Assembly: GCA_023430885.1 (NCBI GenBank)
Contig: JAEYYH010000015.1
Location: 3,743 to 67,742 of the forward strand
DNA length: 64,000 nucleotides
Direction: 5' to 3'
Source of the DNA: Bacillota bacterium
GTDB lineage: Bacteria > Bacillota_I > Bacilli_A > RF39 > UBA660
Shown: positions 53,016 through 62,462 of the stretch, piece by piece
Layout: the number at the start of each line of letters is the position of its first letter
Numbering within the stretch: the first letter of the stretch is position 1
Program-made: the position numbers and the translations under genes
Notes under the pieces: model-generated
Database searches by the model: none
Told to the model about the DNA's origin: nothing
The model's input: the letters and a program-made list of their open reading frames with translations, nothing else

Positions 53016-55517
53016 ATGAAAATAATAAATGATTTAGTAGTAAAATCTTTAAAAGAAAACAAAACAAGAACAATAACAACAATAATTGGAACAACATTAG
53101 CCTTTACTTTAATGTTTTTGATAGCTTTTGGAATAAGCAGTTTAAGAAAAAGTTTTTTAAATCAAATTATTGCAAGCGCAGGGTCATATCACTACGAAAT
53201 ATCAGATGTAAAAGATACACAAAGCAAACTGATTACAGAAAACAATGATATAAAAAGTTATATTGCTTTTAATAGAGAAACCATAAAAGATGATCTCTCA
53301 AATAAATACTATTTTCTGGCAAGTTATAAAGCTGATTATGAAGATAATATAACTCTATATAAAGGTAGTTATCCTAAAGACGAGGAAGTTATAATATCTA
53401 GATTCATATATGATTCATGGAGTATTAATATTGGTGATTACATTAATTCTTATAAAGTAGTTGGAATATATAATGACTGCAAACTAATTAACTTTAGAAC
53501 TGAAAAAAATTACTATTATGGTGCGAAATTAAACTATATAATTACTAATTATACTGAATCAGAGTATAGTTCTTATTCTATAACTTATAAAAATGTAGTT
53601 GGTTCTCATAGAAAAGTGAATACATTAGCAAGACAACTAGGATTTAATAGATTACTAGGTAGTGGTGGTGTAGTTACATATGAAAATATAAAATATAACG
53701 ATCAATTATTAGAATTATATGGTGAGTATGCCGAAAGTGGCGCTGGAGCAATGTTTAAATTAATTTTAATTATTACACTTTCTGTAATTTCACTAGTAAC
53801 ATTTTTTATTCTAACTAATTCGTTTAGTATATCTGTTAAAGAAAGAATAAAGCAATTTGGTATATTATCTAGTATTGGTACAACAAGAAAACAAATAGTA
53901 ATTATGGTGTTATTAGAAGGATTATATATAGGCATTATTTCTATAATCATTGCTTTAGTATTAAGTATTTTACTTTTAATGCAAGTACTTGGTATAACTA
54001 ATTATTTACTTCAGCATATAATTTCAAGCAAATATTTAATAAGTATATATTTGCCTTATCTATTTATTGCACTTGGTTATGGGATGTTAACTCTCTTTCT
54101 AGCTGTACTTTCACCAGCTAGAAAAATAAGTAGAGTTTCTCCTATAGAATCTATTCAGGGAAATACTACTTTTAATTCTAGAAAAAGAAGATTCAAAAGC
54201 AATAGTAAGATAGCAAAAATATTTAAAATAGAAGGAATACTTGCCTCTAAAAATACTAAAAGGAATGCTTCAAAATATAAAGTAATAATAATTACAATAA
54301 GTATTAGTATATTACTATATCTATTCTTTACGGCTATAATTAATTTAAATAAAGAAAATATAGAATCTACATTTGAACAAGAAAAATATGACTTTTCTAT
54401 TTCAGGGGTAAATGAAAATGATATTTCTTTATTTAGAAGTGTTAAAGGGATTGGCGATATTGATATAGTTAAAAACATTTTTGTATCATATAAAAAACCA
54501 GACGATAATAAATACTATTCATTAGAGAATAATACATCGTTCGATACAGCATATACTGATAAAATAGAAAACACAGTTATATATCAAGTAACAGAAGATG
54601 AATTTAATTCTTATATAAAAGAGTACAACTTAAATAAAAATTATCCAATTATAATTAACAATAAAAGTTTATATGATGATGATTTTAAAGTTATAGGAGC
54701 TGAACCAATTTATAAAAATGAGGGCAAGTTTAATATTAATTTTTGTAACTATGAATATATTTTAGATAGTGATACCAAAGTTTCTTCAAGTAAAATAACT
54801 AATTGTTATTTAGAGTATGAAGATGTTAATTTAATTAATGATGGTTGGAAACAAATAGGCGAGTCAAGTAATAATGGTGCCATAATTGTAACAAAAGAAA
54901 TGTTTGATAAAATACTAGATGGTTGTACGAATGAAATATGTCTTAATTATAAGAAAAATCCTACTGTTTCAATATATATAAACGCTGATGACGATATTTA
55001 TGACATTGATGAGCGTTTACAAACTATTGTTGATAATATGAATGGTAGTGATGTTAACTATAATAGTCCTGCTGTTTATTATCTTAATGCTAAAATGATG
55101 ATTATAGCATTAAAATTCATAATTTATGTTATTCTTACTTTAATAATTTTGATATGTATAACATTTATGATTAATACTATAGCTAGTAGTTTAATGCTTA
55201 GAAAGAATGAATTTGCCGTTTTAAAATCAATTGGTATGACAAATAAATCAGTTAAAAAAATGGTTTTTTTAGAAAGTATTGGCGTTGGTTTTAAAGCACT
55301 GATTTTAGGAATTATATTATCTTATGCCAGTATATATTTATTCTTTGCGGCCATAAACTCCAACACAAATGATCCAATAAAATATGATTATCCTATTAAG
55401 GAAACGTTTTATATGGCTATCGTTATTGTTATATTTAATGTTATAATATATATGTATATGATGAATAGAATTAATAAAGATAATATTATTGATGATATAA
55501 GAAATACAAACATATAG
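53016..55517 (+). CDS. FtsX-like ABC permease of BceB type, orphan (no adjacent ATPase).
   Basis: 833 aa with the same architecture as 41604..44198. The upstream gene is czcD and the downstream gene is unrelated. Confidence 0.7.
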   Translation: MKIINDLVVKSLKENKTRTITTIIGTTLAFTLMFLIAFGISSLRKSFLNQIIASAGSYHYEISDVKDTQSKLITENNDIKSYIAFNRETIKDDLSNKYYFLASYKADYEDNITLYKGSYPKDEEVIISRFIYDSWSINIGDYINSYKVVGIYNDCKLINFRTEKNYYYGAKLNYIITNYTESEYSSYSITYKNVVGSHRKVNTLARQLGFNRLLGSGGVVTYENIKYNDQLLELYGEYAESGAGAMFKLILIITLSVISLVTFFILTNSFSISVKERIKQFGILSSIGTTRKQIVIMVLLEGLYIGIISIIIALVLSILLLMQVLGITNYLLQHIISSKYLISIYLPYLFIALGYGMLTLFLAVLSPARKISRVSPIESIQGNTTFNSRKRRFKSNSKIAKIFKIEGILASKNTKRNASKYKVIIITISISILLYLFFTAIINLNKENIESTFEQEKYDFSISGVNENDISLFRSVKGIGDIDIVKNIFVSYKKPDDNKYYSLENNTSFDTAYTDKIENTVIYQVTEDEFNSYIKEYNLNKNYPIIINNKSLYDDDFKVIGAEPIYKNEGKFNINFCNYEYILDSDTKVSSSKITNCYLEYEDVNLINDGWKQIGESSNNGAIIVTKEMFDKILDGCTNEICLNYKKNPTVSIYINADDDIYDIDERLQTIVDNMNGSDVNYNSPAVYYLNAKMMIIALKFIIYVILTLIILICITFMINTIASSLMLRKNEFAVLKSIGMTNKSVKKMVFLESIGVGFKALILGIILSYASIYLFFAAINSNTNDPIKYDYPIKETFYMAIVIVIFNVIIYMYMMNRINKDNIIDDIRNTNI

Positions 55518-55530
55518 AAGTGAGGTTTTT

Positions 55531-56328
55531 ATGAAAATATGTTCTAAATGTAATAAAGAAGTAACACCAGGGCAGTTATATTGTCCTAGATGTGGATTTT
55601 CTTTAATCAAAAACAAATATGGGGAAAGAGTAGGGATAGGTGGTACTGCTTCTAAAATAGTTACTCCAGAAACAACTCAAAAAATTAACGAAGCTAATAT
55701 GGAACATGGTAATAACGGAATTCAACCAAGAATAAATTTATGGGGAAATAATACTAATAATAAAAACACTTCCTCAGCAGCTATTATTGTAATTATATTT
55801 ATTATTTCTACATGCATACCTTTACTATTAACAGTTTTCTCGAGTGTGAAAACAACTAGTAATTCAATTGATATCACTTCAAAATATAATTTAGATAGTA
55901 CTGTAAATCAAGTAACTGGATTAGCAGATGATAATTTAAATGTTCGTAAGTACTACGCTGAAAACGGCACTATAACTTTAGATGTTATTGCAGATGTTAC
56001 TGGTTTAGAAAAAGAAGATTTAACTAATGCTTGGTGTAGCTGGATAGCAAGTTACAATACTGAAGCTAATGCTGTACTATGCACTATTACTGCACATAGT
56101 GATTTAGGCAACTCTGTTGATGCTATAAACTCTTTAGAAGATTTATCTAACAGTATTGATGAAGCTTATTATGACAATGTTAATTATGATACTTTAACTA
56201 GTATTTATGATACTTTAAATAACTTATATTATTTAAGTCGTAATTCTTATGATACTTATAGTGATTATGAAGAGAAGTATAATACTTTAAATAATAATTT
56301 AAATACTTATATTAATAATTTAGAATAA
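55531..56328 (+). CDS. Zinc-ribbon membrane protein, hypothetical.
   Basis: N-terminal CSKC...CPRCG zinc ribbon, one TM helix (AAIIVIIFIISTCIPLLLTVF), Asn/Tyr-rich extracytoplasmic domain. Confidence 0.5.
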   Translation: MKICSKCNKEVTPGQLYCPRCGFSLIKNKYGERVGIGGTASKIVTPETTQKINEANMEHGNNGIQPRINLWGNNTNNKNTSSAAIIVIIFIISTCIPLLLTVFSSVKTTSNSIDITSKYNLDSTVNQVTGLADDNLNVRKYYAENGTITLDVIADVTGLEKEDLTNAWCSWIASYNTEANAVLCTITAHSDLGNSVDAINSLEDLSNSIDEAYYDNVNYDTLTSIYDTLNNLYYLSRNSYDTYSDYEEKYNTLNNNLNTYINNLE

Positions 56329-56430: not shown

Positions 56431-57264
56431 ATGCAAGATATAGGTAGACTCCTTAAAAAAGAAATCGAAGCAAATAGGCTTGTTGAATTTGATTTTATAA
56501 GAAGTTATGTAGAAAATTACATTAAAATTAATAAACTAAAACGTTATTATAAAGATTTAATTCCTAGCGTACCACCAGAATTATTAAAAGCTAATTTAAT
56601 AAGTGCTTATAATGCTAAAACAAAAAATCTTCATATAGATGATGATAGACTAACTGATTCAATTATTAAAACAACTTATTTAAAAGATAAGAATGCATAT
56701 TGTACTAGTGATCTGATTTTTATATATTCTATTTATTTAAGCTATATAACTCATGAACTTGCTCATATAAAACAAAATAAATTAGTTCATTCTTTTAGCT
56801 ATTCTCCGCAAGTACAACTATTAAAAGATGCTTTCACTGTTCATGACAAATACTATGAATTTTATTTAAGCAATCACAATGATTTTATAAGTGAACATAA
56901 TGCCAATATGGAAGCAATATTTGAAGTACTTGATTTATTAAATTATACTAATATGTTAGAAGATAAAGATTTACTTAATCAGTATAATAGTTTTATGTGT
57001 AATTTAATAACAAAACCTTATCAAGCTGTAGAAAATTTTATGATATGTCCTGCAAGCACATTTTATAGTAATTTTAAAGAAAAAGATCGTTTTTATACTT
57101 TGGATAAAGAAATGAGTAAAAATAATTTTACAAGAATACTTTATGGAATGCCTTTTGATAGAAAACTATTTAGTAAATTAGTCCAAGTACGTGATAAAGA
57201 AATAGAAGTGCCTAATGTAAAAAAACTGATTTTAAGAAGTGGTGAATATGGGAAAACTATCTAA
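56431..57264 (+). CDS. HExxH-motif protein, putative metallopeptidase-like (ImmA/IrrE-like?).
   Basis: ITHELAHIKQN. The start at 56431 has the SD aaggtga. Overlaps the next gene. Confidence 0.35.
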   Translation: MQDIGRLLKKEIEANRLVEFDFIRSYVENYIKINKLKRYYKDLIPSVPPELLKANLISAYNAKTKNLHIDDDRLTDSIIKTTYLKDKNAYCTSDLIFIYSIYLSYITHELAHIKQNKLVHSFSYSPQVQLLKDAFTVHDKYYEFYLSNHNDFISEHNANMEAIFEVLDLLNYTNMLEDKDLLNQYNSFMCNLITKPYQAVENFMICPASTFYSNFKEKDRFYTLDKEMSKNNFTRILYGMPFDRKLFSKLVQVRDKEIEVPNVKKLILRSGEYGKTI

Positions 57265-57847
57265 TACTATTACAATGCTCCAGTTATTAAATACTGGTAA
57301 AAAATATACAGTAGACGAATTATCTAAAATATTAGAAGTAACACCACGTATGATTAGAAGTTATAAAGAAGAATTAGATAAAGCTGGCATATATATTGAT
57401 ACTATAATGGGGCCATATGGTGGCTATGTACTTAATCAAAGTATCAGAATGCCAGTTAGAAAATTTCGAAAGAAAGACGTTGATTTATTAAATAGAGTTA
57501 GTTCCAAACTAAATGATGAACAGTTAAAAAATGACTTATATATTCTTACTGATAAAGTAAGAGGAGTATTTAAAGGCTCTAAAGAAGAAGCTAAAGAATT
57601 AGATATTCATGAAGTAAGTGATAAGTATAATGCTTTAACTAGAGCTATAAAAGAAAAAAGAAAAGTTAAGATAACATATTATTCTTATAATAAAGGTGAA
57701 AATGTTAGAATAATTGATCCTATAGAGTTATTTTTATTTAGTGATGGATGGTATGTTGCAGCATACTGTGAACTTAGACAAGATATACGTCATTTTGAAC
57801 TTAAAAGAATTAGAGAGTTTGAACTTTTAAAAGAAAATTATGAGTAG
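57248..57847 (+). CDS. HTH plus WYL-domain transcriptional regulator.
   Basis: N-terminal wHTH (TVDELSKILEVTPRMIRSYKEEL), C-terminal WYL-like motif SDGWYVAAYCELRQDIRHFELKRI. Confidence 0.65.
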   Translation: MGKLSNTITMLQLLNTGKKYTVDELSKILEVTPRMIRSYKEELDKAGIYIDTIMGPYGGYVLNQSIRMPVRKFRKKDVDLLNRVSSKLNDEQLKNDLYILTDKVRGVFKGSKEEAKELDIHEVSDKYNALTRAIKEKRKVKITYYSYNKGENVRIIDPIELFLFSDGWYVAAYCELRQDIRHFELKRIREFELLKENYE

Positions 57848-57899
57848 ACCATATAATTCCTACTTAAGTAGTATTATTTACTTTAGGAGGAATTTTTAT

Positions 57900-58841
57900 A
57901 TGGAAAAGATAATGCAAGAAAATTTTGATTTATTAAAGAAAAGAATAATAGATACTCATGAAGTTAGTGATTTAAAAGGAATTAAAGATAAAATTAAAAG
58001 TATTAAAGGTAATACTATTTGTGTTGGTGCAGGAGGATCTAATGTTGTTGCAAATTATGCATCTAAAGTTATTTCTAAATTAAATGGTAATTTAGTTTTG
58101 TGTATGATGCCAAGAGATTTAGAGCACATTAATTTAGCTAACTTTGATAATGTTTTAATAGCAAGTTATAGTGGTAAAGGTAAAGCAGTTGATTTAGCCT
58201 TAAATAATAAATTAAACAAATATTTATTATCCAATAATGATATTAAATACGACGGAGTAACTAATATTACTTATAATAACACTATAGAAAAAGAGAATAG
58301 TTTTATTTCTCTAGCGGCTACTTTGATGCCTATGTCAATTCTTTTAAAAACATATATGGGTTTAAGAGACCCACATTATATAAGTATAATAGAGGAAATG
58401 TTTGATAAAGTTAAAGTTAATATTAAGTGGAACGACATATATGAAATAATAGGTGGTATAGAAAATAGTACCGTTATTAAGTACTTAGAAAGCACTATGG
58501 TAGAATCAGGTATTGCAGTACCAGTAGTTCATGATAAATATGATTTTTGTCATGGAAGAAGTACACTTTCATACAAAAATAATAATGGGTTAATATATTT
58601 AGATAATCGTAATAAAGAAATTGATAAATTAATACTTAGTGAGGCTAAAAAATATTATACTGAGGTAATAGCTTTAAATGGTTATTATCCTAGTCCAGAT
58701 GAGTTAACTGATGAATTTTATATGACTTTACAAGCTATGTATTTAACTAAAAAAATGGCCGAAAACAAGGGCGAAGACCTAACTGGTGTAGATCATAGTC
58801 CACTTGTTTATAAATTATATAATTTTAAGGGAACAATGTGA
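57900..58841 (+). CDS. SIS-domain-like protein (phosphosugar-binding fold), hypothetical.
   Basis: TICVGAGGSNVVANYA and LIASYSGKGKAVDLAL resemble the SIS GxGxS...SxSGxT motifs. SD aggagg is 9 nt before the ATG at 57900. Confidence 0.4.
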   Translation: MEKIMQENFDLLKKRIIDTHEVSDLKGIKDKIKSIKGNTICVGAGGSNVVANYASKVISKLNGNLVLCMMPRDLEHINLANFDNVLIASYSGKGKAVDLALNNKLNKYLLSNNDIKYDGVTNITYNNTIEKENSFISLAATLMPMSILLKTYMGLRDPHYISIIEEMFDKVKVNIKWNDIYEIIGGIENSTVIKYLESTMVESGIAVPVVHDKYDFCHGRSTLSYKNNNGLIYLDNRNKEIDKLILSEAKKYYTEVIALNGYYPSPDELTDEFYMTLQAMYLTKKMAENKGEDLTGVDHSPLVYKLYNFKGTM

Positions 58842-58848
58842 GGTAATT

Positions 58849-59424
58849 ATGAAAGAAATAGTATTTGTAACCGGCAATACTGGTAAAAGAAAATCCGCTG
58901 AAAAACATCTTAAAAATACTGTAGTAACTTGTCTTGATTTTAATTTTATTGAACCTGATATAAATGATATTGAATATATTGCTAAAGAAAAAGTGCTAGA
59001 TGCTTATAAAAACGTTAATAAGCCCTGTATAGCGTTAGATGCAGGCTTTTACATACCAAATTACCCTAATAATCCAAACTTCCCAGGAGCATTCCCTAAA
59101 AGAGAAATATTAGATACTATTGGAGTTGTAGGATTACTAGAAAATATGAAAGATGTTACTGATAGGAATTGTTATTTTAAAGAATGCCTAGCATATTATG
59201 ATGGAGAAAATATAAAATACTTTTATGGTATAAGTAAAGGAAGATTAAGTACGGAAATAAAAGGAAATGACAGTGCCAAAAAATGGTCAGAATTATGGTA
59301 TGTATTCATTCCTGATAACAATAATAAAACTCTAGCTGAAATGACTGATGAAGAAAGACAAAATAGAAATGATTTAAGTACATCGGCTATTGAAGAGTTT
59401 GGCAAATGGTATAATGAAATATAG
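58849..59424 (+). CDS. Ham1/ITPase-family non-canonical NTP pyrophosphatase-like protein.
   Basis: IVFVTGNTGK (cf. ITPA IVFVTGNAKK), FPGAFPK, C-terminal FIPD...TLAEMTDEERQNRN (cf. TYAEM..EKNAVSHR). Confidence 0.65.
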   Translation: MKEIVFVTGNTGKRKSAEKHLKNTVVTCLDFNFIEPDINDIEYIAKEKVLDAYKNVNKPCIALDAGFYIPNYPNNPNFPGAFPKREILDTIGVVGLLENMKDVTDRNCYFKECLAYYDGENIKYFYGISKGRLSTEIKGNDSAKKWSELWYVFIPDNNNKTLAEMTDEERQNRNDLSTSAIEEFGKWYNEI

Positions 59425-59469
59425 GTTTTAAAGAAAGATAAAATTAATAACTAAAAAAGGATTTTAAGA

Positions 59470-59502
59470 TAATTACAAGTTGTTTATATAACAACTTTTT
59501 TT
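59470..59502 (+). terminator. Terminator after the Ham1-like gene.
   Basis: aagttgtt tatat aacaactt followed by tttttt. Confidence 0.6.
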
Positions 59503-59503
59503 C

Positions 59504-59531
59504 TTGAAAAAATATTTATATATGGTATAAT
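59504..59531 (+). promoter_or_regulatory. Sigma-A promoter for the CYTH-rSAM-lysR operon.
   Basis: TTGAAA (59504-59509), 16-nt spacer, TGgTATAAT (59523-59531). Confidence 0.55.
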
Positions 59532-59564
59532 AACACGCATAGGCGCATAAAGGGGGAATAATGT

Positions 59565-60407
59565 ATGGCAAAGCAAATGGAAAATGAAGTAAAAGTACTT
59601 AATTTAGATGTAGACAAAGCTATAGCAGATATTGAAAAAAATAATGGTGTACTCCTAAAAGACTGTATTCAAAAGATATATACATATGATTTAGGAACAA
59701 TTAGTGGAAGATTTGATGATCTTTTAAGACAATTTAAACCTAATAACTTTGAAGTTATGAAATCTAAATTTAAGTTATTATTTTTTGAAATAGATAATTT
59801 ATTAACTGATGAAATGAAACAAAAACTAATGGATAATTATAATCACAATTATCTAAATTTAATCTTAGATACTGCAAGTGATAATGTAGAATTAGAACAA
59901 TTAGTTAATAATCAAACTATTTTAGATATAGCACATAGTTTTGGTATTAATCCTAATAAATGGATAAGACTTAGAGAAACTGATAATTTAACTACAGTAG
60001 CTACAAAAAATATTTTAGAAAAGAAAGTTGAAGAAGAAATGCAACCAGTTTTAGAAGCTGAAATAGATGTTGTTTCAATATTAGAAGCAAATGAATTTTT
60101 AGAGCAACTAGGTTTTGCATATCGTAATTATCAAGAAAAAAGAAGAATTACTTACTTTGTTAATAATATAAAAGTTGACATAGATTTTTGGCCATTAATT
60201 CCTCCATATATGGAAATTGAAAGTACTGATGAAAAAATTAAAGAAACAATAGATCTTTTAAACTTAGGAGATTATGAGATAGTTTCATGTAATACTGAAG
60301 AAGTATATAAGAAATATGATATAAATATTTATGATTATAGAGAGTTGAGATTAGATGAAAAAAGTAAATGTAAACAAAGTATGTTGGAACATAACAGAAA
60401 AATGTAA
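59565..60407 (+). CDS. CYTH-domain (triphosphate tunnel metalloenzyme / class IV adenylyl-cyclase-like) protein.
   Basis: N-terminal ExExK motif (MENEVKV) and C-terminal YMEIES strand. 280 aa. SD aggggga. Confidence 0.5.
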   Translation: MAKQMENEVKVLNLDVDKAIADIEKNNGVLLKDCIQKIYTYDLGTISGRFDDLLRQFKPNNFEVMKSKFKLLFFEIDNLLTDEMKQKLMDNYNHNYLNLILDTASDNVELEQLVNNQTILDIAHSFGINPNKWIRLRETDNLTTVATKNILEKKVEEEMQPVLEAEIDVVSILEANEFLEQLGFAYRNYQEKRRITYFVNNIKVDIDFWPLIPPYMEIESTDEKIKETIDLLNLGDYEIVSCNTEEVYKKYDINIYDYRELRLDEKSKCKQSMLEHNRKM

Positions 60408-61128
60408 TCGTAATTGCAAACACTGTTTTAGATTTAGAAATAGTGAAGAGCTTTCATTTGAAGACAATATGAAAATATTAAATATTTTGAAAGCAAGTGG
60501 AACTAAATCAATTACTTGGACTGGTGGAGAAGCAACATTATACTCCAATATAGAAATGCTTATTGATAAATCTCATAAAATGGGAATTAACAATAACTTA
60601 ATTACTAATGGTAGTACTTTAACCACAAGCATATTTAAAGAAAAATTTAGTAATTTAGATAGTATAACTTTTTCTTTGGATTTCTTGTCAGATGAAGATA
60701 ATATTAAATTTGGCAGGGGCGATAATTATTATAGTCATTTAAAAGAAATGATTACTTATATAAATAAAGAATTTCCTAATATAAAAATTAAAATAAATAC
60801 AGTTATTTTAAGAGATAATAAAGGAATGCTAATCGATATTTATAATGAAATAAAAAATTTCAAATTATCTAAATGGAAGTTAATTAAGTTTGTTAGTTTT
60901 AGAGGAACAGCTTATAAAAATAAAGATAGGTATGCAACAACAACTGATGAATTCAGAAGAAGAATTGATGATGTAATAAAACTTCATGATGATAGTTTTG
61001 AAATTGAAGCAGTATCTACATTCAACTTAGAAGAAAATCACGTCATGATTAAACCAAATGGTGATTTAGTTAAGACAGTTCAAGGTATAGATAACCTATT
61101 ATTTAATATACTAAAAGAAGGTGAATAA
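60355..61128 (+). CDS. Short radical-SAM enzyme of the viperin/MoaA-like subgroup (pVip-like).
   Basis: WNITEKCNRNCKHCF (CxxxCxxC), ITWTGGEATL, NLITNGSTL, ITFSLDFLSDEDNIKFGRG, KIKINTVILRDN and KWKLIKF match the viperin motifs CNYKCGFCFH / FSGGEPFL / SIVSNGS / ISCDSF..GRG / KINSVINRFN / RWKVFQ. There is only one Fe-S Cys triad. 257 aa. Overlaps the upstream gene by 53 nt. Confidence 0.6.
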   Translation: MKKVNVNKVCWNITEKCNRNCKHCFRFRNSEELSFEDNMKILNILKASGTKSITWTGGEATLYSNIEMLIDKSHKMGINNNLITNGSTLTTSIFKEKFSNLDSITFSLDFLSDEDNIKFGRGDNYYSHLKEMITYINKEFPNIKIKINTVILRDNKGMLIDIYNEIKNFKLSKWKLIKFVSFRGTAYKNKDRYATTTDEFRRRIDDVIKLHDDSFEIEAVSTFNLEENHVMIKPNGDLVKTVQGIDNLLFNILKEGE

Positions 61129-62035
61129 TATGATAGAATACAAAGATGGCATTAATCTAAATTTATATCGTGTATTTTATTATGTAGCTAAAGAAGGTAG
61201 TATATCTGCAGCTGCTAAAAAAATATACGTATCACAACCTGCTATTTCTAAGTCTTTAAAGAAATTAGAGGAAATGCTTAATGTAGATTTATTTTATCGT
61301 ACGCTTACAGGAGTTCAGTTAACAGAATTTGGTGAGACATTACTTTTCTATGTAGAAAATGCATACAATAGTGTTTTAACTGCAGAAAGAACTCTAGTTG
61401 AAAGTAAAGCATTAGAAAGAGGTAAGATTTCTATTGGTGTGCCTTCACATATTGGATCATTTTTCTTATTTGAATATATAGAACAATTTAAAAAAGATTA
61501 CCCAAATATTCAAATAAAAATAGTGAGTAGATCTACTAATGAAATGTTAGAACAACTTGAATCTCATGAAATAGATTTCATGATAGATTCTTCACCAATA
61601 AGTACAAAATATAATAATATTATTATTCAGAAACTAGTTTCATTTCCAACTTCATTTATAACTAAAAAAGAATATGGTAGTGAGACAAAATCTTTAAAAG
61701 AATTTGAAAAAGAACCATTTATATTACCCGTTAATCGTAGTAGCAGAAGAAGAGAACTGGAAGCGCTTCTTTCAGCTAACAATATTGAGTTGAAAAACGT
61801 TATTGAGATAGAAACTACTGAAATGGCTATTTCAGCTGCTAAAAAAGGTTTTGGTATATGTGTTGTAGCAGAAGAATCTGTAAAAACAGAGCTTGAATTA
61901 AAACAATTATATAAAATAAAAACAAAGGAAAAATTACCTGATTTAGAGATAAACTTAGTTTATATTGAAAACTTTTTACCTCCGGCTCCACGTAAATTTA
62001 TTGAAATGTTTTTAGGACAAAAAGACTTAAAATAA
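61121..62035 (+). CDS. LysR-family transcriptional regulator.
   Basis: N-terminal HTH LNLYRVFYYVAKEGSISAAAKKIYVSQPAISKSLKKLE. Overlaps the rSAM stop by 8 nt. Confidence 0.85.
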   Translation: MNNMIEYKDGINLNLYRVFYYVAKEGSISAAAKKIYVSQPAISKSLKKLEEMLNVDLFYRTLTGVQLTEFGETLLFYVENAYNSVLTAERTLVESKALERGKISIGVPSHIGSFFLFEYIEQFKKDYPNIQIKIVSRSTNEMLEQLESHEIDFMIDSSPISTKYNNIIIQKLVSFPTSFITKKEYGSETKSLKEFEKEPFILPVNRSSRRRELEALLSANNIELKNVIEIETTEMAISAAKKGFGICVVAEESVKTELELKQLYKIKTKEKLPDLEINLVYIENFLPPAPRKFIEMFLGQKDLK

Positions 62036-62204
62036 GTCTTTTTTTATAACTTGTAGTTATAGCACGGATAATTAATTATTCATCTTTTTTATTTTAGTTA
62101 TAGCCCATATATATAATTAGTATTAGTCATATTAATATATACCTGTTACAATATTTATTACATTTACTAGTGTTATTCTAGTAGAAATAGAGGTATACAA
62201 GAAT

Positions 62205-62462
62205 ATGAAAGAACTAAACAGGATGCGTAATATAGCTAAAATAGTGTTTAATGATAACTTAATAACTTTTGCATTAGAAAACGAGCTAGATAGTAAATAT
62301 TATAGAACTAGTATAGTCGTAAAAGAAAATAATTTGGAACAATTAAAAAGATTTATTGCAGATTGCGATGTACTTATTTCAAAACCTGTAACATTTAAAA
62401 TATATACAAAAAGTAATCTCACTGAACTAAGCTTTAATAAAGTACTAATTGATAATAATTAG
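62205..62462 (+). CDS. Small hypothetical protein (85 aa).
   Basis: ORF with SD gaggta. No family assignment. Confidence 0.35.
   Translation: MKELNRMRNIAKIVFNDNLITFALENELDSKYYRTSIVVKENNLEQLKRFIADCDVLISKPVTFKIYTKSNLTELSFNKVLIDNN

Follow-up and report, generated by a model that had tools for sequence, protein, structure and literature searches.

Organization of the locus

Here we analyze a group of seven genes located at 56.4–62.0 kb of a 64,000-nucleotide stretch of contig JAEYYH010000015.1 from a Bacillota bacterium (hereafter the window), in which a viperin-like radical S-adenosylmethionine (rSAM) enzyme is encoded between a CYTH protein and a LysR-type regulator. The window is low-GC (25–30%) chromosomal DNA of an uncultured spore-forming Bacillota, with ftsZ, spoIIGA and sigE located ∼8 kb upstream of the gene group, and the composition of the region itself (GC 0.25–0.27) is not atypical. 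The seven co-oriented open reading frames (ORFs) proposed by an earlier reading of the letters alone (hereafter the sequence-only reading) were all confirmed, both by our ORF check and by an independent gene calling of the identical public contig (L089; surveyed loci and contigs are numbered with the prefix L). Its domain assignments were likewise verified, that of the SIS-like protein by predicted fold only and that of the CYTH protein by a full catalytic motif set.

All genes lie on the plus strand and fall into two units (two start positions, where given, are separated by a slash). Unit A begins with a lineage-specific HExxH protein (56422/56431–57264; 277–280 aa), followed by a winged helix-turn-helix (wHTH)-WYL regulator (57239/57248–57847), a double-SIS phosphosugar isomerase/deglycase-like protein (57840/57900–58841; 313–333 aa, 313 aa from the ATG at 57900) and a Ham1/ITPase-family nucleoside triphosphate (NTP) pyrophosphatase (58804/58849–59424; 191 aa from the ATG at 58849). 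Unit B encodes the CYTH (triphosphate-tunnel metalloenzyme) protein (59565–60407; 280 aa), the viperin-like rSAM enzyme (60355–61128; 257 aa; PF04055) and, as its last gene, the LysR-type regulator (61121/61130–62035; 304 aa from a GTG start, 301 aa from the ATG at 61130).

The gene overlaps described for Unit B were found as claimed, with 53 nt shared by the CYTH and rSAM genes and 8 nt by the rSAM and LysR genes, provided that the GTG start is used for the latter. Relatives retain the 53-nt overlap, with conservation of the two reading frames that run through it. Similarly, the promoter proposed for Unit B (TTGAAA, 16 nt, extended −10 TGgTATAAT; 59504–59531) was the best site in a 9-kb scan, with an 11/12 match plus TG, and it is invariant in six loci of the window's architecture (Type I, described below), including relatives whose CYTH protein is only 53% identical. 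The terminator assigned to the end of Unit A stood only in part: a hairpin with a T-run is present after the Ham1 gene and kept in relatives (in L011/L008 with a different stem sequence), but it is energetically weak, with an AT-rich 8-bp stem followed by U7, a dG of −7.4 and a z of −0.9, no better than shuffles. The inverted repeat that forms this hairpin, AAGTTGTT-N5-AACAACTT followed by T7, directly abuts the −35 box (59477–59502). When the window is compared with L006 and L008–L011, the sequence of this repeat varies by lineage (AAGTTGTT..AACAACTT versus GTTATA..TATAAC) while the perfect hairpin and T7 stay; the repeat may terminate Unit A, serve as an operator for LysR, or do both. At the distal end, a hairpin read from the sequence (AGACTTA-AAA-TAAGTCT followed by T6; 62023–62045) spans the LysR stop codon and is the likely Unit B terminator. 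An Rfam search of 55–64 kb yielded no riboswitch or other known RNA at E ≤ 1.

Viperin is the nearest match of the radical SAM enzyme by sequence and fold

To place the rSAM enzyme among known families, we compared it with curated models and structures. It scored 130.5 bits on the viperin model NF038283 (model positions 3–245 of 281; curated cut-off 180 bits) and 66 bits on the MoaA model (curated cut-off 284 bits), and it matched the PADLOC model for prokaryotic viperins (pVips) at 2e-38 over ∼91% of the profile. In a PDB sequence search, the top nine matches were all viperins (41–62 bits), with MoaA at 31 bits. The AlphaFold2 (AF2) model of the protein (pLDDT 87.9) has the viperin fold, a partial beta-alpha barrel closed by a C-terminal extension, and Foldseek aligned it with the CTP- or UTP-bound viperin structures 6q2p, 6q2q and 9dfw at a TM score of 0.83–0.86 and a root-mean-square deviation of 2.5–3.0, including mouse viperin at 0.86, compared to 0.70 for MoaA. 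The view that the enzyme is viperin-like and not MoaA/QueE-like is thus upheld, and a housekeeping identity of the latter kind was rejected, given also a QueE score of 37 bits and the absence of a PF06463 match. BlsE-type rSAMs of nucleoside-antibiotic pathways appeared as distant relatives in the HMM and PDB sequence matches.

The viperin-like motifs listed in the sequence-only reading (CNxxCxxCF, GGE, NGS, SxD..GRG, KINTV and KWK) are all present. C17, C21 and C24 of the CxxxCxxC motif are invariant, as are G57-G58-E59 (GGE). The GRG, KINTV and KWK motifs would presumably match the triphosphate/ribose contacts R194, K220/N222 and R245/K247 of the mouse viperin–CTP complex, and the invariant N251 is a candidate for the beta-8-loop Asn (6Q2P).

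We then aligned the family of the window enzyme with four plasmid-borne proteins annotated by PGAP as 'viperin family antiviral radical SAM protein'. The family retains GGE, NG, SxDS, GRG, KINTV and (K/R)WK, but the four pVips reach 270–320 bits on NF038283, and 262–324 bits on the PADLOC pVip profile compared to 130 bits for the window enzyme. A HMMER scan of 1.8 billion representatives with the rSAM recovered 806 clusters at E ≤ 1e-10. In a neighbour-joining tree, which is only indicative as it carries no bootstrap support and was built without the Bernheim/Shomar viperin reference set, the PGAP pVips group in a small clade of 11 by themselves, the window clade falls elsewhere in a star-like viperin-like radiation, and MoaA-like sequences fall outside of it. 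Taken together, these results indicate that the rSAM, while nearest to viperin by sequence and fold, belongs to a family separate from canonical pVips.

The CYTH protein is predicted to be catalytically intact

The CYTH protein carries an ∼85-aa helical insert (residues ∼40–125), which accounts for its weak direct scores. The window protein itself is below the Pfam cut-off, many of its homologues carry PF01928, and its direct matches to CYTH structures (2dc4, 7ns8 and 1yem) are weak. On the class IV adenylate cyclase CyaB model TIGR00318 it scored 25.3 bits over residues 131–228 only, short of the cut-off of 57.95. Over 22 homologues, E6/E8/K10 (ExExK), K132/W133/R135/R137, K148, E164/E166, K192/R194, D207 and E217/E219 are invariant; with this charged catalytic residue set complete, the protein is predicted to be catalytically intact.

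Members of the same insert-bearing CYTH family were also encountered in other clusters, next to ATP-grasp ligases and ABC or MFS exporters (L108/L109:1–9857 and L094:1515–8925). The cluster in L108 additionally contains orthologues of the U32, methyltransferase-like and chorismate-mutase/DAHP-synthase genes found in the Type II operons described below, but the visible part of the locus includes no viperin-like gene. Another, unrelated combination of kinase, CYTH and rSAM was observed in a variable segment beside a stand-alone CYTH-rSAM-LysR trio at L093:1421–5297, where a Tmk-like kinase, a 165-aa CYTH protein, a 372-aa rSAM, a 201-aa protein and a glycosyltransferase are encoded; the sister contigs L090–L092 carry methyltransferase, HD and YegS_C genes at this place instead. 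The 372-aa protein was considered as a viperin-like candidate and rejected; it matches the 'variant radical SAM' model NF045502.

CYTH and LysR partners of the radical SAM enzyme are widely conserved

The third protein of Unit B is a LysR-type regulator with both the DNA-binding (HTH_1, PF00126, 2.9e-20) and the substrate-binding domain (PF03466, 5.2e-33). To assess how widely the three genes stay together, we performed a pattern scan with one genome per species, which identified 199 loci, of which 80 were fetched together with metagenomic contigs, and their ORFs were called, clustered and annotated. The triad is conserved over ∼200 gut Bacillota genomes at species level and comes in four architectures. 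Within six genes of the rSAM, a CYTH or CYTH-like (c3) gene was present in 74 of 89 loci and a LysR gene in 75, with both in 66; many of the exceptions lacking one of them lie on truncated contigs. The LysR gene stands at most two genes from the rSAM in 67 of the 89 loci. These results extend the pairing of the rSAM with CYTH and LysR far beyond the strain analyzed here.

The Type I architecture (HExxH-WYL-SIS-Ham1 / CYTH-rSAM-LysR-orf85-cardiolipin synthase) is found in the window, in three species-level metagenome-assembled genomes and on short contigs. Type II (∼14 loci) has the order LysR-HAD phosphatase-Tmk/dNK kinase-GreA-like-Peptidase_U32-(DAHP synthase family)-methyltransferase-like-rSAM-methyltransferase-(rSAM/SPASM)-(cytidine deaminase)-CYTH-(PLP-decarboxylase-like). 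In Type III (∼55 loci), a CYTH-like (c3) and a LysR gene precede an rSAM fused to a receiver (REC) domain, with a divergently oriented Spo0A-like gene followed by sigma-like, MazF and recombinase genes. Finally, a stand-alone CYTH-rSAM-LysR trio, located beside TnpV, RepA_N and integrase genes, is carried by very abundant gut contigs. The Type III c3 protein was related to the CYTH family by hhalign (89% probability) and showed weak matches to CYTH/class IV cyclase structures. The LysR proteins of Type I, Type II and the stand-alone trio are 42–47% identical over their full length, which is higher than for the corresponding rSAMs, and within Type I LysR is the most conserved gene (93%, compared to 82% for the rSAM and 64% for CYTH). 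Being orthologous across architectures and most conserved, LysR is best described as a dedicated, co-inherited part of the cassette.

The sequence-only reading had stressed that CYTH and Ham1 proteins take the place of the nucleotide kinases usually seen next to prokaryotic viperins. While this is true locally at the window, relatives of the window rSAM at 35–40% identity do adjoin Tmk/dNK kinases, and the nucleotide-linked genes sharing an operon with the rSAM in relatives further include a cytidine deaminase, an HAD phosphatase and a GreA-like paralogue.

The Type II loci L026, L031, L037, L073, L077 and L083 (e.g. L031:2662–12700) are operons of 10–12 genes around a sister rSAM, whose components include a Cof-type HAD phosphatase, a 692-aa Peptidase_U32 protein, two methyltransferase-like proteins and a second rSAM/SPASM protein. 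The Type II operon has the appearance of a gene cluster with which gut Bacilli and Clostridia would synthesize a pyrimidine nucleoside bearing many modifications. The placement of U32 beside a DAHP synthase or chorismate mutase presumably hints at prephenate-dependent hydroxylation and, more speculatively, the GreA-like paralogue would fit self-protection against a transcription chain terminator. Proteins of 194–236 aa encoded upstream of the rSAM in Type II were considered as CYTH candidates and rejected as methyltransferase-like.

In the Type III loci (L012–L088, e.g. L066:8396–11955), the commonest architecture, the REC domain lies C-terminal to the viperin-like rSAM, and the divergently oriented neighbour matches both the Spo0A receiver and the Spo0A DNA-binding domains. 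Downstream, sigma-70-region-4-like proteins, a MazF/PemK toxin and serine or tyrosine recombinases are encoded. One Type III copy (L102) is listed in IMG/VR as a predicted viral contig.

Unit A is a separate module

The sequence-only reading had joined both units into one nucleotide-modifying, possibly antiviral system. We therefore examined the Unit A proteins and their neighbourhoods. The HExxH protein matched no Pfam, NCBIfam, PADLOC or PHROG family, and among the surveyed rSAM loci its gene is present only in the window, L009, L010 and L011. The wHTH-WYL regulator was identified by PF13280 (3e-20), PF08279 and the PADLOC WYL profile (1e-32). For the SIS-like protein, no match was obtained with Pfam or by searching PDB sequences with the family profile, and the fold search alone was informative: its AF2 model (pLDDT 88.9) matched the double-SIS proteins 2aml, NagB-II, FrlB and the GlmS isomerase domain at E values of 1e-11 to 1e-8, predicting two tandem SIS domains as found in phosphosugar isomerases, deaminases and deglycases. 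The Ham1 protein belongs to its superfamily (PF01725 at 74 bits, with a gathering score of 22.5) but is below the RdgB equivalog cut-offs (TIGR00042 80 versus 145; NF011396 110 versus 203), and on the basis of these scores is a divergent paralogue of the RdgB ITPase family.

The family of the SIS-like protein comprises 626 homologue clusters. On unrelated contigs, WYL-SIS-Ham1 occurs with Ham1 directly after SIS and with no viperin-like, CYTH or LysR gene nearby, and a sister arrangement, WYL-x-SIS-PfkB kinase, recurs elsewhere. In L097–L101, WYL-double SIS-Ham1 and WYL-323 aa-double SIS-PfkB kinase are seen as alternative forms of a common unannotated module. Conversely, the stand-alone trio occurs on contigs without WYL, SIS or Ham1, and none of the ∼80 rSAM loci other than Type I has a SIS or Ham1 gene, with a WYL-like gene found only in L056 and L060, several kb downstream. 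L011 keeps HExxH-WYL-Ham1-CYTH-rSAM-LysR and has no SIS gene.

Since each module recurs without the other, and a conserved terminator and promoter stand between them, the two units appear to be independent modules that are adjacent only in the window's close lineage, and the combined system was rejected on gene neighbourhoods. By the same token, the WYL protein would regulate Unit A and not the viperin-like operon, so that the earlier suggestion of WYL gating is not borne out. We infer that Unit A is a WYL-regulated phosphosugar/nucleotide housekeeping or salvage module, the Ham1 version of which might deal with damaged or glycated nucleotides.

Genes flanking the two units

Upstream of the HExxH gene, an 833-aa FtsX-family permease (53016–55517) is followed by a 265-aa protein (55531–56328) that starts with a zinc ribbon and ends in a tail rich in Asn, Thr and Ser, and which shares 51% identity with its counterpart in L010. 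Directly after Unit B, an 85-aa ORF (62205–62462) has no family match and is 62–66% identical in L009 and L010, where it is flanked by the LysR gene and a PLD gene of the cardiolipin-synthase-like kind.

Defence context was evaluated separately. A tblastn search of 50,697 phage records gave no match and PHROGs were uninformative, and the sole contig from IMG/VR represents a Type III locus of chromosomal or mobile-element character; a phage origin was rejected. PADLOC, when run on the neighbours in the window and in L090/L093, returned WYL and weak matches only, and a defence-island context was likewise rejected.

A proposed function for Unit B

Overall, we lean with modest confidence towards a model in which two independent modules are adjacent only in this lineage, and in which Unit B is a self-contained cassette that makes a regulated modified nucleotide or nucleoside. 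Unit B probably represents a new and conserved partnership built around a nucleotide-modifying enzyme of the viperin-like kind, and its most likely product would be a 3'-deoxy-3',4'-didehydro (ddh)-type modified nucleotide made under the control of a dedicated LysR. A nucleotide substrate for the rSAM is suggested by the kinase, cytidine deaminase and phosphatase genes of the Type II operons together with the conserved GRG, KINTV and KWK motifs. In the proposed mechanism, the rSAM, with the aid of SAM and a [4Fe-4S] cluster, would remove a hydrogen from the ribose of a ribonucleotide and so dehydrate it to the ddh-type product. The CYTH protein would process the phosphate end of either the substrate or the product, for instance by trimming or cyclising the triphosphate, and may compensate for the triphosphate-capping tail that the rSAM lacks. 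The two enzymes would be translationally coupled through their overlap within a unit that has its own promoter and terminator, and LysR would sense a small molecule of the pathway and control the operon. The product could then act as a polymerase poison, an antimetabolite or a signal.

Several observations weigh against this proposal. The rSAM does not reach the NF038283 cut-off (130.5 versus 180 bits), stops ∼25–30 residues short of the C-terminal RGGxYxW tail, which is seen in three of the four aligned pVips and diverged in the fourth, and belongs to a family that has C-W-(N/K/V), CWN in the window, where pVips have N-(W/F/Y)-H before the cluster cysteines. In mouse viperin, the RGGxYxW tail presumably caps or binds the triphosphate. 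With the tail and the N-x-H motif missing and the score below threshold, chemistry or substrate may differ from those of viperin; the earlier statement that the enzyme tracks viperin closely therefore holds for the closest family and the motifs but was overstated in these respects. The unsupported tree described above adds to this caution, and substrate and product are derived from homology at 20–30% identity. The CYTH family is also found where no viperin-like gene is present, alongside either ATP-grasp ligases and exporters or another rSAM/SPASM protein, which argues that its role is not viperin-specific. Finally, Ham1 remains beside Unit B down to 72–74% rSAM identity, and a lineage-specific functional link between the two is possible.

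Three other explanations were weighed against two neighbouring modules with a self-contained Unit B. That all six or seven genes form a single antiviral system, gated by the WYL protein, with rSAM and CYTH making a chain terminator that Ham1 cleans up or matures, strikes us as very improbable. Adjacency, co-orientation and the retained Ham1-CYTH-rSAM order speak for it, as do the NTP substrates common to Ham1 and CYTH and the fact that WYL regulators accompany many defence systems; however, the recurrence of each gene set without the other, the ∼80 distant loci devoid of SIS and Ham1, the conserved terminator and invariant strong promoter that split the units, and the separate regulator of Unit B all run counter to it. 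It is also unlikely that the rSAM is a divergent pVip, a ddhNTP synthase acting alone in anti-phage defence, with CYTH and LysR as accessories or bystanders. Although pVip models are its best matches, its fold is that of viperin, two architectures lie in or beside mobile elements (recombinases and MazF; TnpV/RepA_N), one copy is predicted to be viral, and a viperin-related but distinct rSAM has been validated in the Ophion defence system, the enzyme has half the score of true pVips and no C-terminal tail. Moreover, a CYTH protein and an orthologous LysR conserved across architectures are contrary to a bystander role, LysR control is more typical of metabolic operons, and the window locus sits in a stable chromosomal context outside any defence island and has no counterpart in the phage genomes searched.

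Rather doubtful, in turn, is the idea that the cassette is a minimal nucleoside natural-product or cofactor-like pathway whose rSAM chemistry is not a viperin-type dehydration. This idea draws on the Type II operons, with their kinase, U32 hydroxylase-like protein, DAHP-synthase family protein, two methyltransferases, rSAM/SPASM protein, cytidine deaminase, PLP-decarboxylase-like protein and HAD phosphatase, on the orthologous U32, methyltransferase, DAHP and CYTH genes that occur with ATP-grasp ligases and ABC exporters, and on the rSAM itself, whose N-x-H motif and C-terminal tail differ from viperin and which has BlsE-type enzymes among its distant relatives. In contrast, the window has two enzymes only and neither exporter nor tailoring genes, and a nucleotide pocket like that of viperin is favoured by the GRG, KINTV and KWK motifs together with the TM score of 0.86 against the CTP-bound enzyme.

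Within our model of Unit B as a self-contained cassette, the mobile-element contexts and the Ophion precedent favour a role in defence, whereas LysR, the stable chromosomal context and the biosynthetic Type II operons favour a regulated metabolite. As a tentative proposal, to which we attach limited credence, CYTH and the tail-less rSAM may constitute a two-enzyme machine, spread across gut Bacillota, making a new nucleotide-derived molecule, such as a ddh-nucleoside mono- or cyclic phosphate, that is sensed by the co-evolving LysR (or by the REC/Spo0A-like proteins in the sister architecture) and serves as a signal or regulated antimetabolite rather than as a product of classical abortive infection. 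In the Type II operons, the same core would be extended to a hydroxylated, methylated ddh-pyrimidine nucleoside.

Viperin chemistry, the source of chain-terminating ddh-nucleotides, is shared by bacteria and humans and known mainly from a solo enzyme or one with a kinase partner. If our model is true, a large unannotated sister family working with a triphosphate-tunnel enzyme and a LysR sensor would widen the uses of viperin-type enzymes, and gut-bacterial operons of this kind may make new antiviral or antibiotic nucleosides. WYL-SIS-Ham1, on the other hand, emerges as a different, equally uncharacterised and very common module, and the first reading of the locus is corrected in this regard.

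Comparison with known systems

In line with the sequence-only reading, which knew of no described system of this composition, our literature search found no paper describing a CYTH/viperin-like/LysR cassette, nor a viperin and CYTH or a prokaryotic viperin and LysR pairing. For Unit A alone, the closest parallel is Frl-type Amadori catabolism, whose operon combines the double-SIS deglycase FrlB with the PfkB kinase FrlD. FrlB is among the fold matches of the double-SIS protein and the sister locus carries a PfkB kinase; unlike in the frl operon, the partners of the double-SIS protein in Unit A are a WYL regulator and an NTP pyrophosphatase of the Ham1 family.

For Unit B, pVips (NF038283, PADLOC pVip) are the best HMM, PDB-sequence and fold match and have CxxxCxxC, GGE, SxDS, GRG, K-I-N-T/S-V and (K/R)-W-K in common with the window enzyme. 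About 12% of bacterial viperins sit beside nucleotide kinases, and some relatives of the window rSAM likewise adjoin Tmk/dNK kinases. Compared to pVips, the window enzyme differs in its lower score, its length (∼25–30 residues shorter), its C-W-N motif, its seemingly separate clade and its obligate-looking CYTH and LysR partners. The human viperin–CMPK2 pair similarly links a viperin-type enzyme to one acting on the phosphate state of nucleotides; CMPK2 builds the triphosphate, whereas CYTH enzymes are expected to cleave or cyclise it.

A viperin-related rSAM with dedicated partners is known from Ophion of Gammaproteobacteria, in which the rSAM OpnA acts with PHP and PRTase proteins and for which anti-jumbo-phage activity was demonstrated (bioRxiv 10.1101/2025.09.30.679545). 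The partners in Unit B, CYTH and LysR, are entirely different.

Eukaryotes, too, link viperin-type enzymes genetically to a cyclase/triphosphatase domain, in part through COG1437, which we take to be the CYTH/class IV cyclase group. Shomar et al. listed four viperins of eukaryotes that carry a fused 'triphosphatase or cyclase' domain (COG2114 or PF00211, or COG1437), canonical viperins for which no functional study of the fusion is given and the number with COG1437 as opposed to a class III cyclase is not stated (10.1101/2023.09.13.557418). These fusions would lend partial, independent support to a viperin–CYTH link. Unlike them, Unit B consists of separate, overlapping bacterial genes with a non-canonical viperin-like enzyme and a LysR regulator, and, if our model is true, it would provide a concrete bacterial model for these unexplained eukaryotic fusions.

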